Positions 3,352-62,946 of a stretch of 64,000 nt of DNA are shown piece by piece (the stretch's first letter is position 1; every line of letters starts with the position of its first letter). The position numbers and the translations under genes are program-made. Under the pieces are notes generated by a model. The model saw nothing but the letters and a program-made list of their open reading frames with translations, ran no database searches and was not told the origin of the DNA. Location: contig DATJMX010000030.1 of the NCBI GenBank assembly GCA_035508495.1, positions 33,894 through 97,893 on the forward strand. The letters run 5' to 3'. Source of the DNA: Candidatus Binataceae bacterium. Lineage in GTDB: Bacteria; Desulfobacterota; Binatia; Binatales; Binataceae.

Positions 3352-3452
3352 GAAAGCAGAAGGGAAAAAGATCGCCACAAAGGCACAAAGGACACTAAGG
3401 AAGATCCGCCGAAGCGGCGTCGCGCCGCTTCGCTTAGTGCCCTGGTGCCTAA
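3352..3452. repeat. dispersed repeat family D copy
   Basis: CACAAAGGCACAAAGGACACTAAGG ... GAAGCGGCGTCGCGCCGCTTCG ... CTTAGTGCCCTGGTGCCTAAG, an inverted-repeat architecture around a GC hairpin. Confidence 0.6.
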
Positions 3453-6274: not shown

Positions 6275-6333
6275 GGTTCTGATCGAACAATCGGTCGCGC
6301 ACATCGCGTGACCGGCGCCGGCTCGGGGGAAAA

Positions 6334-6490
6334 CGAAGCGGCGCAGCGCTCATGGAAGCGCCGCGCCGCTTTTGTTCATTTGTGGCGAGCACAAAAGACT
6401 CACCGCAAAGACCCGAGGGCACAAAGCCAAGGGATCTTACTTCCCTTGGTGGCTTGGTGGTTGTCTGATTTTCTGCGGCGAAGCTTCGAC
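6334..6490. repeat. dispersed repeat family D-related copy (rearranged)
   Basis: ACGAAGCGGCGCAGCGC...GCGCCGCGCCGCTTT hairpin, then GGCACAAAGCCAAGGGATC and a second hairpin CCAAGGGATCTTACTTCCCTTGG. Confidence 0.45.
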
Positions 6491-9356: not shown

Positions 9357-9516
9357 GCGACACGCCCTGGAATGTGGCGTGAGCCGCGCGGCTACGTGTC
9401 CAACTGCGGGCAGGGACGCCCATAGGGACGCGCACCCCACAGATTCTTAGAGGCATATTGCGCCCGTTCATCAACAGTCACCGCCCAGCGACCATTCGTC
9501 ATGATCGAAAAATTCC

Positions 9517-9592
9517 GTCATCCCCAGCGAAGTCGAGGGATCTTGGAGGCCCCCAAAGGGGCCGGTGCCAAACATCGCGCGCAGCGCTTTCG
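9517..9592. repeat. dispersed repeat family C copy (GTCATCCCCAGCGAAGTCGAGGGATCTTGGAGGCCCCCAAAGGGGCCGGTGCCAAACATCGCGCGCAGCGCTTTCG)
   Basis: Near-identical units at 27101-27178 and 56821-56905, and a partial one at 28998-29013. It creates the spurious N-terminal extension of ORF 9501. Confidence 0.7.
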
Positions 9593-14996: not shown

Positions 14997-15048
14997 TGAA
15001 TAACCTCGCCTTGAATAACCTCTCCCGTTTTGCGGGCGAAATTATTCA
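14997..15048. repeat. collapsed remnant or solo inverted-repeat of MITE family A (TGAATAACCTCGCC + TTGAATAACCTCTCCCGTTTTGCGGGCGAAATTATTCAA)
   Basis: Matches the terminal inverted repeats of the 238-bp element at 44113-44350. Confidence 0.55.
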
Positions 15049-27084: not shown

Positions 27085-27100
27085 TGATGAATGACTCTCT

Positions 27101-27270
27101 GTCATCCCGAGCGAAGTCGAGGGATCTTGGTGGTCCCGAAGGGACTGGTGCCAGACATCGCGCGCAGCGCTTTCATAATGAAAGGGCGCGGTCCCGCCCG
27201 CTGTCCGGAACCGGCCCCTTCGGGACGCTCCGAGATTCTTCGACTCCGCAGACTCCGCTTAGAATGACGG
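27101..27270. repeat. full-length palindromic MITE-like element of repeat family C (two inverted arms)
   Basis: Arm 1 TGTCATCCCGAGCGAAGTCGAGGGATCTTGGTGGTCCCGAAGGGACTGGTGCC...; the reverse complement of the 3' end (CCGTCATTCTAAGCGGAG...CCCGAAGGGGCCGG...) mirrors it. Confidence 0.6.
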
Positions 27271-31087: not shown

Positions 31088-31200
31088 AAATTCCCGTGCG
31101 GGAAGGGAAAGAGAGTTAGTTTTTTTCTGGATTCGGCTTGAGTAAAAAATCCAGAAACGACCTAAACCCCTAGCCCCTTCCGGCACGGGAAGGGGAACCG
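31088..31200. repeat. MITE-like palindromic element, repeat family B (TTCCCGTGCGGGAAGGGAAAGAGAGTTAG ... spacer hairpin ... ACGACCTAAACCCCTAGCCCCTTCCGGCACGGGAAGGGGA)
   Basis: Inverted arms with an internal TCTGGATT/AATCCAGA hairpin. Related copies at 58364-58471 (full) and 41921-41962 (single arm). Confidence 0.65.
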
Positions 31201-39088: not shown

Positions 39089-39565
39089 ATGTACGCGAGC
39101 CGCACTACTAAAATCCTGGTCACGATTTTCGCACTTGCGGGATTAGCTGCGCTCGTCGTGCTGACGACATCGCTCCGCGGCGTCGCGATCTTCGAGCCGT
39201 CGGGCTACGTGCTCTATACGACCCTTGATCAAGACGCGTCAGGCCTAAAGGCGAACAATCCTGTCGAGTTGAATGGCGTGCTCGTCGGCAAGGTTCTCTC
39301 GGTTCGCCTCAAAGACCTGCGTACGCATCTGGCGCTCCTTATCGACGATGGTGTTCGGATCAATCGGTGCGCAACGGTGAGTCTCAAGACGGAAGACAGC
39401 GTGTTAGTGACGAAGTTCGTTTCGATCGAAAGCCAATCGAACGGGCCGCCACTTATGGCGCACGATACGATCGGCGGGTGTCACGGGCCCGTTGTACTGG
39501 AGCAGGCGATCGGCGCCTATGGGCCCCACGTTGAGCAACATTCGAGCCTGCGACGCGATAGCTAG
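39089..39565 (+). CDS. divergent MlaD paralogue (MCE-domain protein), upstream copy of a tandem duplication
   Basis: Shares MYASRTT...IFALAGLAAL and the MCE-domain N-half with the next gene. The first 21 nt of the two genes are identical (ATGTACGCGAGCCGCACTAC) and the C-terminus has diverged. Confidence 0.55.
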   Translation: MYASRTTKILVTIFALAGLAALVVLTTSLRGVAIFEPSGYVLYTTLDQDASGLKANNPVELNGVLVGKVLSVRLKDLRTHLALLIDDGVRINRCATVSLKTEDSVLVTKFVSIESQSNGPPLMAHDTIGGCHGPVVLEQAIGAYGPHVEQHSSLRRDS

Positions 39566-39583: not shown

Positions 39584-40186
39584 ATGTACGCGAGCCGCAC
39601 TACACAGTTCCTGGTTGGGATCTTCGCGCTGATCGGAGTCGCGGCGCTTATTGTGCTGTCGATCACGCTCGGCAAGGTGCAGATCTTCGCGCCGCCGGGC
39701 TACGTTCTCTATGCCAACTTCGACAATATCTCGGGGCTCAAGGTCGGCGATTCGGTGGACCTTGCCGGCGTGCATATCGGCAAGGTCGCAAGTGTCAGGC
39801 TGAAGGATTTGCGCGCACACGTGACGCTGTTTATCGACCGCGGCGTCGACATCGATAAGGACGCGATCGCCGGCATCAAGACCGAAGGTCTGCTCGGCAA
39901 CAAATACGTATCGATCGCGCTCGGGCCGAGCGACAAGATGCTGACCGATCACGATACGATCCGGCAGACCGAATCAGCCTTCGTGCTCGAGGATGCGATT
40001 GGAACATTGATCAACAACCTCGGTTCGGGCGGGAGCAAGGACTGCAAGGACAAGGATTCCGACAAGCAGGCGAGCAGCGGCGGCCCGGCGTCGGGCGACG
40101 ATATCAGCCTGCCACCCGGCGTCGCCGATTCCAAACCTTCGCCCGCGGCCAAGCCGTCTGCGGCGTCGAAGCCCGGCCAGAAGTGA
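39584..40186 (+). CDS. mlaD: MlaD (MCE-domain periplasmic substrate-binding component) with Lys/Pro/Ala-rich tail
   Basis: MCE domain with GLKVGDSVDLAGVHIGKVASVRL...IKTEGLLGNKYVSIALG. Confidence 0.8.
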   Translation: MYASRTTQFLVGIFALIGVAALIVLSITLGKVQIFAPPGYVLYANFDNISGLKVGDSVDLAGVHIGKVASVRLKDLRAHVTLFIDRGVDIDKDAIAGIKTEGLLGNKYVSIALGPSDKMLTDHDTIRQTESAFVLEDAIGTLINNLGSGGSKDCKDKDSDKQASSGGPASGDDISLPPGVADSKPSPAAKPSAASKPGQK

Positions 40187-41920: not shown

Positions 41921-41962
41921 TTCCCTTCCCGGTGCGGGAAGGGGACAGGGGTTAGGTCGTCT
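41921..41962. repeat. single-arm copy of repeat family B (TTCCCTTCCCGGTGCGGGAAGGGGACAGGGGTTAGGTCGTCT)
   Basis: Matches the arms of the elements at 31088-31200 and 58364-58471. Confidence 0.55.
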
Positions 41963-42023
41963 GTCTTGATTCTGACGGAAGGAAGACTCTCGGATTAGTC
42001 CGCTGACAAAGGGAGGCCGTCAA

Positions 42024-44112: not shown

Positions 44113-44350
44113 TGAATAACCTCGCCCGCAAAGCGGGAGAGGTCGGATGGCGAGGAGCTTGAGATGTCTGAGTTCAAGCTGCTTGCCATCCGGGCGAGGG
44201 TGCAGCGGCGGGAGCGTGCAGGAACTTCTCGCTGCTAACATTCTGCCAGCTTCGAACGCCGCACCCTCACCCGCACGTCACGGCGCATGCGAAAAAAACG
44301 CAACCGCTGCGCCGCGCGACCTCTCCCGCGATGCGGGCGAGGTTATTTGG
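44113..44350. mobile_element. 238-bp MITE-like element (family A) with about 33-bp terminal inverted repeats, inserted between the LLM oxidoreductase and obg
   Basis: Left end TGAATAACCTCGCCCGCAAAGCGGGAGAGGTCG; right end CGACCTCTCCCGCGATGCGGGCGAGGTTATTTGG, whose reverse complement is CCAAATAACCTCGCCCGCATCGCGGGAGAGGTCG. A collapsed copy sits at 14997-15048. Confidence 0.65.
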
Positions 44351-56760: not shown

Positions 56761-56820
56761 CGATGCGGAGGCTCCGAGCCTTTCCGTCGCCCATTTAAAT
56801 CGTTGGCCGCGATCGAGTCC

Positions 56821-56930
56821 GTCATCCAGAGCGGTGACCGCGAAGGATCTCGGAGGCCCCGAAGGGGCCGGCACCGGTAAGCGCGCGAAGCGCTTTCCTT
56901 AAGCGCGATCTATCGCGAGAAAACGCTTAA
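56821..56930. repeat. repeat family C copy (CGTCATCCAGAGCGGTGACCGCGAAGGATCTCGGAGGCCCCGAAGGGGCCGGCACCGG...) with CTTAAGCG/CGCTTAAG inverted tail
   Basis: Matches 9517-9592 and 27101-27270; its 5' end matches the partial copy at 28998-29013. Confidence 0.6.
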
Positions 56931-58363: not shown

Positions 58364-58471
58364 CTTCCCTTCCAGTGCAGGAAGGGAAAGAGGGTTAGGT
58401 CGTCTCTTTTTCTGAAAAGATCTCAGACAAACGACCTAACCCCCAGCCCCTTCCCGCATCAGGACGGGGGG
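58364..58471. repeat. MITE-like palindromic element, repeat family B, full copy
   Basis: CTTCCCTTCCAGTGCAGGAAGGGAAAGAGGGTTAGGTCGTCT, a spacer, then ACGACCTAACCCCCAGCCCCTTCCCGCATCAGGACGGGGGGG. Confidence 0.65.
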
Positions 58472-60352: not shown

Positions 60353-60470
60353 AAAAGCAGAAGCAGTTACCACCAAGGCACGAAGACACTAAGCGAAGCG
60401 GCGCAGCGCCGCTTCGTTTATTACCTTACTGACTTTCTGCCTTCGTGCCTTTGTGGTTCTCTGCCTGCCT
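60353..60470. repeat. dispersed repeat family D, best-preserved copy (ACCAAGGCACGAAGACACTAAG + GCGAAGCGGCGCAGCGCCGCTTCG + inverted CCTTCGTGCCTTTGTGGTT)
   Basis: Inverted flanks around a 10-bp GC stem, located at the 3' end of the methyltransferase gene. Confidence 0.6.
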
Positions 60471-60493
60471 GACTTTGTGCTAAATCCCGTCGC

Positions 60494-61920: not shown

Positions 61921-62118
61921 TGCAAGGAAGCGCGGCGGAAGCGCGAAGCGGTCCGAGGTGATTTGGCCCCCAAAAACCCCTTTTTTGCCCTAAACCATGT
62001 TGAGGGTATCGCCAGTCATTTGAAGTGATTGGCTGCGACTTACTCCGAGCCTTCGCGGCAGCCGCTCAGGATGACGGATTCGATCGCAGCGATAGGATCA
62101 GACGATAGAGTCATCTCC

Positions 62119-62192
62119 AAAAAAATACAGTGGGGTGGGCGTCCCTGCCCGCCATTAAGATGGCGCGCTGCGCGCCTTCGATGGCTGTGAAA
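62119..62192. repeat. repeat family F copy 1 (GGTGGGCGTCCCTGCCCGCCATTAAGATGGCGCGCTGCGCGCCTTCGATGGCTGTGAAA)
   Basis: About 75-bp direct repeat with two internal palindromes (GGGCGTCCCTGCCC; GGCGCGCTGCGCGCC). The second copy is at 62871-62946. Confidence 0.6.
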
Positions 62193-62361: not shown

Positions 62362-62865
62362 ATGTCAAAACCAGGTGCCCTAATGTTGGTAGCACTTGCC
62401 GTTGGTGGAATTGCATTTACACCGATCGCTCATGCCCAGACCGACGGTGACAAGGCGGCGGTCAAGACACTCAACCAACAGATCATGGCCGGCTTCAACC
62501 ATCACGACGCCTCAGCAATCATGGCTTTCTACTCCAATGACCCGGACGCGATCTTCTTCGAGGACACTATCCCACTTCAGTTCAACAAGGCGGCGCTAAT
62601 CAAGGTTACTACGGACTTCTTCAAGTCCGCATCCGATTTTCAGGCCACCATGGACTCGTACGATTCGGTCGTAAGCGGCGACCTGGCCGCCGTGCATTAC
62701 GTCATTCGGAACAGTTGGACCGACAAGAACGGTAAGCATTCGCAAACCAGCCGCTACACGCAGATTGATAAGAAGGAGGGCGGCAAGTGGCTCGTATGGC
62801 ATGAGCATTATTCCGTGCCGTTCGACCCTGCGACCGGCAAAGCTGTGTTCAACGCAGCGCCGTAG
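62362..62865 (+). CDS. secreted SnoaL-like/DUF4440 (NTF2-fold) protein
   Basis: Signal peptide MSKPGALMLVALAVGGIAFTPIAHAQ, then NTF2-like GDKAAVKTLNQQIMAGFNHHDASAIMAFYSNDPDAIFFED...GKWLVWHEHYS. Visibly lower GC than its surroundings. Confidence 0.55.
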   Translation: MSKPGALMLVALAVGGIAFTPIAHAQTDGDKAAVKTLNQQIMAGFNHHDASAIMAFYSNDPDAIFFEDTIPLQFNKAALIKVTTDFFKSASDFQATMDSYDSVVSGDLAAVHYVIRNSWTDKNGKHSQTSRYTQIDKKEGGKWLVWHEHYSVPFDPATGKAVFNAAP

Positions 62866-62870
62866 TTCTG

Positions 62871-62946
62871 AAAAATCGGTGGGGCGGGCGTCCCTGCCCG
62901 CGGTTAAGATGGCGCGCTGCGCCGCCTTCCATGGCTGTGAAAAAAG
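62871..62946. repeat. repeat family F copy 2
   Basis: GGTGGGGCGGGCGTCCCTGCCCGCGGTTAAGATGGCGCGCTGCGCCGCCTTCCATGGCTGTGAAAAAA, a direct repeat of 62119-62192. Confidence 0.6.

Follow-up and report, generated by a model that had tools for sequence, protein, structure and literature searches.

An intergenic palindromic repeat family in Candidatus Binataceae with arms resembling those around GxxExxY nuclease genes

The window analyzed here is a 64,000-nt stretch of contig DATJMX010000030.1 (assembly GCA_035508495.1) from a Candidatus Binataceae bacterium, and it contains four copies of an intergenic palindromic repeat, family D, at about 2165-2255 (copy 1), 3352-3452 (copy 2), 6334-6490 (copy 3), and 60353-60470 (copy 4). 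Copy 1 lies in the gap between the convergent Rieske and HtrA genes, copy 3 in the gap between two convergent small genes, and copy 4 in a tandem gap where a methyltransferase gene is followed on the same strand by a luciferase-like gene. Copy 2 occupies a divergent promoter region, flanked by the starts of HtrA on the minus strand (ATG 3301) and of a methyltransferase gene on the plus strand (3628). These placements were taken from rough open reading frame (ORF) calls and from independent gene calls on a near-identical European Nucleotide Archive (ENA) contig; both agree, and the latter likewise leave the gap at copy 2 gene-free. Intergenic DNA makes up ~16% of the window, giving a chance of ~6e-4 that all four copies fall there, and family D is present in 4 of about 35 gaps (35 of at least 60 bp). 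An earlier, sequence-only reading of the window had put all four copies at gene 3' ends, which is correct for the three that follow stop codons (two in convergent gaps, one in a tandem gap) and incorrect for copy 2, located as it is between divergent starts.

The existence of the family, as proposed in that reading, was borne out. The 22-nt core GAAGCGGCGCAGCGCCGCTTCG (at most 3 mismatches) was located by a scan of the window at 2227-2249, 3410-3432, and 60394-60416, and the hairpin had 0 matches in 100 shuffled sequences. All three cores form a perfect 10-bp stem with a 3-nt loop (CGARGCGGCG-NNN-CGCCGCYTCG), composed of CGAGGCGGCG-CTG-CGCCGCCTCG in copy 1, where an A-T pair has become a compensated G-C pair, CGAAGCGGCG-TCG-CGCCGCTTCG in copy 2, and CGAAGCGGCG-CAG-CGCCGCTTCG, followed by TTTATTAC, in copy 4. 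The same perfect stem had been ascribed to all four copies, and copy 3 departs from this; its GC hairpin (6332-6376, + strand) is longer and imperfect, matching the copy 4 hairpin at 60394 over its first 16 nt (CGAAGCGGCGCAGCGC), and a distinct arm-loop-arm palindrome follows on its 3' side at 6391-6462, bearing out the description of this copy as rearranged. Copy 4 is predicted to form a single long composite hairpin, at -57.8 kcal/mol on the + strand (z -6.1) and -62.3 kcal/mol on the - strand (z -6.9), and folding far above shuffled sequence was also seen for copies 2 and 3, with copy 1 exceeding its shuffles weakly because its right arm is degenerate. Family D is thus a real, intergenic, structured repeat family.

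The flanks of the core (GGCACGAAG) consist of tandem 8-9-nt CACNAAG units, with an inverted CTTNGTG array on the opposite side. With the unit generalized to C-R-C-N-R-A-G at a period of 8-9 nt, and an array taken as at least two tandem units, the window holds 10 arrays against 1.27 expected, 6 of which lie within family D (forward arrays at 2189-2203, 3376-3399, and 60371-60393; reverse arrays at 60441-60455, 6445-6459, and 2250-2264), and the arm type is therefore specific. Family D has both the array of at least two units and its inverted partner, with N unpaired. The flanks are full in copy 4, where a purine-rich outer-left segment (GCAGAAGCAG, 60357-60366, + strand, pairing with 60460-60468) precedes a forward arm of three CACNAAG units (CCAC-CAAGG CAC-GAAGA CAC-TAAG; 60370-60393, +), and where the core is followed by a reverse arm of two inverted units (CCTTCGTGCCTTTGTGG, 60440-60456, +), paired with the forward arm except for one C/T mismatch at the variable position, and by an outer-right segment (TTCTCTGCCTGCCTG, 60457-60471, +), the motif of which also ends the orthologous element at the copy 1 site of a related contig, L169. 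Copy 2 has good flanks, comprising an outer-left segment and forward arm (..GAAAAAGATCGCCACAAAGGCACAAAGGACACTAAG, 3354-3399, +, in the divergent 5' region) with the units CAC-AAAGG CAC-AAAGGA CAC-TAAG, and a reverse arm (CTTAGTGCCCTGGTGCCT, 3433-3450, +). In copy 1, the outer-left segment and forward arm (..CAGAAGCAGAAAAAGATCACCACGAAGACACTAAG, 2165-2203, +) carry the units CAC-GAAGA CAC-TAAG, and the reverse arm is a degenerate remnant (CTTCGCGCCTCAGCG, 2250-2264, +); the L169 orthologue keeps a full arm (CTTTGTGCCCTAGTGCCTTTGTGGTG). The arms of copy 3 are its own and unlike those of the other copies, with degenerate forward units (CACAAAAG, CACCGCAAAG, GGCACAAAG, CCAAGGGA) and a loop at 6391-6476 (+) and, within the same interval and on the same strand, a right side made of a reverse arm (CCCTTGGTGGCTTGGTGG) and an outer-right segment. 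Terminal inverted arms are thereby delimited at 60370-60393 / 60440-60456, 3375-3399 / 3433-3450, and 6391-6434 / 6443-6462. The conserved flanking inverted repeats noted earlier consequently hold for copies 4 and 2 and not for the right side of copy 1 or for copy 3.

Arms of the same kind were found around a nuclease gene in other bacteria. A loose pattern (ACACTAAGN{0,30}CGARGCGGCG) run on genome contigs gave, among the matches listed, nearly all chance hits and one useful locus, L119 from Brevundimonas, which has CACNAAG units upstream. There, inverted arrays (TTCATCACCAGGGACACGAGGGACCACAAAG upstream, CTTAGTGTCCTTGGTGACCCTTGGTGTCCTTCGTGATGAA downstream) bracket an ORF of 125 residues. This ORF belongs to PF13366 PDDEXK_3 (E 4e-40) and to TIGR04256, the 'GxxExxY protein', and the same cassette with perfect ends (GGTTCATCAC...GTGATGAACC) is present in B. 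lenta (L164). In 87 of the 120 closest Brevundimonas relatives, the protein begins with MHEGHEG.., which is the array read as protein. The Brevundimonas cassette (L119, 5024-7176; L164, 892-3408) has a fixed location immediately after hslV; a DUF4440-type gene comes next, and in L164 hslU lies farther on. The cassette appears to be vertically inherited across the genus. An unrelated metagenome contig, L166, reads ATG-AACCACGAAGACACAAAGACACTAAGG, gene, TAA-TTCCTTAGTGCTTTTGTGCCTTGGTGGTT, then another forward arm, with CCTTAGTGCTTTTGTGCCTTGGTGGTT 3' of the stop codon, an arm sequence the same as that of family D, and L167 has a similar cassette. In L185, a forward arm (951-979) is followed by the gene, a GC hairpin (1405-1432), and a reverse arm (1448-1475); judged by the order of its parts, this locus is the putative full-length counterpart of family D with the gene still present. 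The innermost CACTAAG unit is common to family D, L119, L166, L185, and L191.

The GxxExxY family is very large, with 19,244 clusters at 50% identity (E at most 1e-3), and residues D69, E79, and K81, which fit the PD-(D/E)XK signature, are invariant in 45 diverse members. Using this 45-protein PDDEXK_3 set, we fetched 80 loci from Joint Genome Institute (JGI) metagenomes, and in 54 of 77 the upstream and downstream flanks share an inverted repeat whose score exceeds the best of 30 shuffles by at least 8. Where loci were inspected, these repeats are CRCNRAG units (CACGAAG, CACCAAG, CACAGAG, CGCAAAG, CGCAGAG, or CGCCGAG). Among the 75 loci with both flanks, at least two forward units occur within 100 nt upstream in 51, at least two reverse units within 130 nt downstream in 50, and both in 41, where the chance expectation per flank was estimated at about 0.7%. 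Arrays occur at 5.8/kb in cassette flanks, compared with 0.51/kb in the remainder of these loci and 0.048/kb in a 0.88-Mb set of unrelated genome loci. These counts show, at the level of sequence, a strong and specific association of the family D arm class with GxxExxY nuclease genes. Moreover, unit type agrees between a nuclease and its nearest neighbor in 56 of 73 comparisons, compared with 20.6 (maximum 36) under shuffled labels, and the unit type is not a simple function of GC content; this fits co-inheritance or co-evolution of nuclease and arm, the two being inseparable here.

Two other arrangements were noted within the nuclease family. In L168 (860-1540), a PDDEXK_3 gene is accompanied by direct, non-inverted repeats of another kind (AATCAGCGTAAATC.GCGAGATCCG.GGGAAATAAAAAA..CCCGCAGAT.ACGCAGATAA), so CRCNRAG arms are not used by all family members. 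A minority of loci (L201, L202, L204, L222, and L233) have the opposite layout, with reverse-type units upstream and forward-type units downstream, and therefore the gene is not always inside a forward-loop-reverse palindrome. In viral contigs, a single GxxExxY protein as query found no match and the GxxExxY alignment found only 2 loci.

Gene-less forms were likewise encountered outside the window. A scan of IMG/VR for three CACNAAG-type units returned 36 loci. Apart from purely tandem arrays, these hold 22 arm-loop-arm hairpins, at most four in any 5 kb, whose loops span 6-34 nt, and no nuclease gene was found near the hairpins in these loci. One of the IMG/VR contigs, L132 (62% GC), carries the exact 23-nt arm of copy 4 around a gene-less loop of ~130 nt with an inner hairpin. 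Gene-less forms of the arm class are, on this sampling of contigs, shown to be common. Within their hairpins, the variable N is paired in 9 of 60 unit pairs and the two R positions in 118 of 120; in the cassettes, N is paired in 70 of 146. In the class as a whole, the other variable positions are paired in at least 93%. The arms are therefore 7-bp paired blocks split by one free position, an arrangement more suggestive of recognition sites in series than of a simple stem. In eight of the IMG/VR contigs (L128, L133, L136, L145, L151, L153, L155, and L161), the octamer CACTAAGG or CACCAAGG, which is also the unit of the palindrome arms, is repeated purely head to tail in as many as about 12 copies, with no inverted partner.

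The history of the four copies could be followed in relatives of differing distance. The methyltransferase of the window is 100% identical to a protein from a Candidatus Binataceae metagenome-assembled genome, and the relatives of its HtrA bear the names Binatus, Binataceae, or Binatia. At 99.7-99.9% identity to the window, the ENA contig matches it fully in copies 1-3, and copy 4 contains two single nucleotide polymorphisms (SNPs; 2 of 19 strain SNPs in 13.5 kb), of which a G>C at 60401 breaks one pair of the stem. L169 (91% HtrA identity) has the element at sites 1-3, i.e., at the positions of copies 1-3, with arm unit numbers differing from those in the window; at site 1, its right arm is complete and its hairpin is one compensated pair off that of the window. 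The element is absent at sites 1 and 2 in L170, L171, and L172 (75-80% identity). It is also absent at site 4 in L254 (75%), where the order of the EF-P, methyltransferase, and luciferase genes is kept, the spacer measures 49 bp vs. 141 bp in the window, and homology to the window restarts at position 60477. As the 91% relative has the element and the 75-80% relatives are without it at the three testable sites, the four copies are lineage-specific insertions or deletions, and at the three sites testable in L169 they predate the split from it. The SNPs in copy 4, one of them stem-breaking, and the change in arm unit number in L169 show that the copies evolve fast, as far as these comparisons reach. 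On the sites compared, the elements are shown to have entered, or to have been retained in, the intergenic DNA of the Candidatus Binataceae lineage.

We consider it probable that family D comprises non-autonomous or relic, gene-less palindromic elements of the nuclease-cassette class, with any terminator effect being secondary. Each element consists of a forward CACNAAG array, a central GC hairpin, and an inverted array, and its arms belong to the CRCNRAG class that brackets the ~125-residue GxxExxY / PDDEXK_3 gene in many bacteria. It would be an 'empty' form lacking the nuclease gene, much as a REPIN stands beside its RAYT gene or a MITE beside its parent element. The arm class, period, and inverted layout are identical in family D and in the GxxExxY / PDDEXK_3 cassettes, and the order seen in L185 (arm, gene, GC hairpin, arm) minus the gene is that of family D; unlike the cassettes, family D is without the nuclease gene. 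It is classed here as a gene-less form because no PDDEXK_3 ORF lies between its arms, and it would have derived from such cassettes. The arms may be recognized by a GxxExxY nuclease whose gene lies at another place in the genome, or lay in an ancestor, and which would copy, move, or maintain the elements, possibly through cutting of the hairpin or a cruciform and repair from another copy. The central GC hairpin may then incidentally stop or stabilize transcripts 3' of genes, a side effect rather than the reason for the family.

Several observations weigh against this interpretation. No PDDEXK_3 gene was found with the 45-protein profile in 81 kb of contig (the window and 17 kb of flanks), nor did this profile find a PDDEXK_3 ORF in L123, L125, or L169-L172. 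Most cassettes (33 of 47) have no inner hairpin, their reverse arm beginning no more than 24 nt past the stop codon; the GC hairpin of family D (CGAAGCGGCG..) was not found in any cassette and is no general feature of the class. The strict composite of arm plus hairpin had 0 matches in JGI metagenome contigs, and no further copy of family D was present in the adjoining contig (8.5 kb left and 9 kb right of the window); from the missing JGI matches, the family looks small and local. Comparison of filled and empty sites revealed no evident target-site duplication, and there was no sign of recent movement, with the same three sites being occupied in the 91% relative. The copies agree in the sequence of their central hairpin, with one pair compensated, and this could reflect selection on RNA or DNA structure rather than the decay of a relic. 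Regarding the nuclease, we know of no recorded activity for any GxxExxY protein, and no solved structure homologous by sequence to it was found. Its predicted model is of high confidence (predicted local distance difference test score 95.8), and the best fold match was the Cas4 protein SSO0001 (template modeling score 0.59, E 0.04); the matches to Cas4 and lambda exonuclease are weak, extend to the generic PD-(D/E)XK core only, and gave no hint of a substrate. The link between arms and nuclease is, as read from the loci sampled, a correlation.

By analogy with RAYT and REPIN, the GxxExxY nucleases and inverted CRCNRAG arrays could, more tentatively, form a selfish or domesticated DNA system present in several phyla, with family D among its non-autonomous members; we regard this as possible and hold it with some doubt. 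In such a system, the nuclease would read the periodic arms and drive the copying, homing, or upkeep of the gene-less hairpins. Homing endonuclease genes resemble the cassettes in that the sequence interrupted by a small nuclease gene also occurs in an 'empty' state, permitting a cut-and-copy model, and differ in that the cassette target would be a dispersed palindrome rather than a conserved host gene, homing itself being hypothetical here. PD-(D/E)XK homing enzymes are rare, and the appearance of one of them, I-Bth0305I, in our fold search (rank 40, E 0.85) carries no meaning.

The sequence-only reading had also proposed that the copies, placed right after stop codons, are co-opted as bidirectional transcription terminators or mRNA-stabilizing structures, and this account is weakly supported. 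Whether retained as Rho-independent terminators, acting perhaps in both directions, or as hairpins that shield mRNA at its 3' end, the elements would resemble known terminators in having a GC-rich, strong stem-loop core, a stop codon before 3 of 4 copies, and one or two T-rich tails, and the hairpin sequence is kept, with a compensated pair, both between copies and between the window and L169. Under a hairpin-plus-T-run rule, the only family D hairpin to pass was 6352-6375 (+), the 3' part of the copy 3 hairpin plus TTTTGTTCATTT; that at 60394-60416, with TTTATT directly on its 3' side (tail TTTATTAC), was borderline, and a T-run is absent on both strands at 2227-2249 and 3410-3432. A terminator or mRNA-stabilizing effect of the central hairpin is plausible for copies 3 and 4. 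Half of the copies are nevertheless without a T-run, copy 2 lies in a 5' region between two gene starts, and terminator-like sites across the window are no commoner than in shuffled sequence. A stem sequence common to several sites and long arm arrays set family D apart from Rho-independent terminators; the arrays are unnecessary for termination, and they match the class around nuclease genes. The family serves only 4 of about 35 intergenic gaps, and the 75-80% relatives manage without the element at three orthologous sites, with gene order unchanged at sites 1 and 4 and the site-4 genes 49 bp apart. As such, a terminator or mRNA-stabilizing effect does not explain family D, and we consider it unlikely that the elements are kept for this purpose.

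A cis-regulatory role, in which the arrays bind a host protein or small RNA or the whole element acts as a regulatory RNA for its neighbors, appears less likely still. The regular 8-9-nt units with one free position (N paired in 9/60 vs. 118/120 for R) look like recognition sites in series, copy 2 is placed upstream of HtrA at a distance of 50-150 nt from its start, and a gap of ~22 nt separates the end of copy 4 from the start of the following gene, all of which would suit regulation. The neighboring genes are, however, functionally unrelated (Rieske protein, HtrA protease, methyltransferases, luciferase-like oxidoreductase, and lipoprotein), and the element is absent at the orthologous sites of the 75-80% relatives. 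No Rfam family matched anywhere in the window at the gathering threshold, and the window scan found no tRNA or tmRNA genes.

The earlier description of family D as like the repetitive extragenic palindromic (REP) elements, which with their RAYT transposase occur in Pseudomonas and enterobacteria, is a fair one, given that it is dispersed, intergenic, and palindromic with strong predicted structure. REPINs are described as short, intergenic, palindromic, multi-copy, vertically inherited, and fast evolving (PMC3116915, PMC3337134), traits that family D shares, including its vertical sharing with a close relative. Palindromic intergenic repeats paired with one bracketed gene are known from the REP/REPIN-RAYT system (PMC3116915, PMC3337134, PMC3733652), and the likeness extends to gene-less copies beside a single-gene master bracketed by inverted repeats, vertical inheritance in a lineage, and covariation of protein and repeat type. 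Classical REP/REPIN elements moved by a RAYT (HUH, Y1) transposase are nonetheless a very improbable explanation. The GTAG or CGTC head, which most REPs have in common according to one study (PMC3733652), is absent beside the palindromes of family D, where copy 1 alone has CTAC, on the wrong side. Where a REP would have a single palindrome of 20-40 bp, family D has arms built of 8-9-nt units in tandem, each with one variable position left unpaired, and the gene inside such arms elsewhere encodes a ~125-residue PD-(D/E)XK nuclease (PF13366 / TIGR04256), not an HUH Y1 transposase; no transposase was noticed among the Pfam-annotated gene calls in 81 kb of contig. GxxExxY genes also occur in several copies per genome, unlike the single-copy RAYTs.

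It is hardly credible that family D reflects a chance likeness of independent GC-rich hairpins or an assembly artefact, for although repeats can be blurred in metagenome assemblies and strain differences concentrate in repeats, the hairpin had 0 matches in 100 shuffles, three independent assemblies (the ENA contig, Logan contigs, and the window) are 99.7-100% identical across the copies, and a separate relative, L169, has elements at the same sites.

Family D also bears comparison with bacterial miniature inverted-repeat transposable elements (MITEs), such as Correia/NEMIS, RUP, BOX, and ERIC, which are likewise intergenic, 100-150 bp long, with terminal inverted repeats and long hairpins, may lie in transcripts, and differ in presence or absence between relatives. 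As expected for a MITE, it is a non-coding element of 50-500 bp with terminal inverted repeats in several copies (four in 64 kb). It differs from these elements in its periodic unit arms, in the target-site duplication not seen at its sites, and in that its only gene-bearing counterpart is without a recognizable transposase.

Additional repeats were noted in the window. A second intergenic family (..GTCATCCCGAGCGAAGTCGAGGGATC..GGCCCC.AAGGGGCC..) occurs in both orientations at 9514-9591, 27098-27249, 56806-56897, and 62047-62090, and its copy at 56764-56902 is the most variable stretch between the near-identical strains (9 SNPs and a 20-nt indel). A third family (TTCCCGTGCGGGAAGGGAAAGAG.GTTAGG..) is present in direct and inverted copies at 31091-31128, 41923-41966, 58370-58407, and 58425-58468, with a strain SNP at 58461. 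An inverted repeat (AATAACCTCGCCCGCAAAGCGGGAGAGGT..) at 44115-44161 / 44301-44347 surrounds 139 nt and has a third related copy at 15018-15048, 29 kb away, while two 52-nt copies that are 88% alike (..GGTGGGG.GGGCGTCCCTGCCCGC..TTAAGATGGCGCGCTGCGC; 62122-62173 and 62871-62922) flank a SnoaL-like gene (62362-62865). A 140-nt direct repeat, 73% alike, at 39089-39228 and 39584-39723 is located at the starts of adjacent ORFs (39089-39565 and 39584-40186), which points to a tandem gene duplication as the putative origin of this pair. Among the chance matches of the loose scan is an element of at least 140 nt (..GACTGTGTCACGACCGGAAATCATAATTCGCGGTGGAACAAACACTAAGAAATCCGGCTCATTCAGCCGCGAAGCGGCGGCATTTGTG..) that a metagenome-assembled genome of the Acidobacteriaceae (MFD03044.bin.1.102) carries in 16 or more near-identical copies (loci L003, L011, L026, L038, L044, L045, L051, L067, L077, L095, L101, L102, L105, L109, and L117). 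This element has no relation to family D and probably belongs to a high-copy mobile element.

Viewed locally, family D looks unremarkable, an intergenic palindromic repeat that may have side effects on transcripts. The broader consequence concerns GxxExxY (PF13366/TIGR04256), a very large family with no assigned function that lies inside inverted unit arrays in most of the loci sampled. Gene-less hairpins built from these arrays are also dispersed through intergenic DNA in other bacteria. Full-text literature searches returned no account of the arrays or of their link to GxxExxY, although subscription journals were mostly outside their reach, making this weak evidence of novelty. The arrays would explain the odd low-complexity N-termini found in GxxExxY annotations (MHEGHEG.., MNHEDTK..), and the family gains a testable candidate function, that of a nuclease specific for the arrays or for a structure and linked to a palindrome that is mobile or maintains itself. 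The association of these nucleases with their arrays would be a second, mechanistically different host-repeat association of the REPIN-RAYT type.

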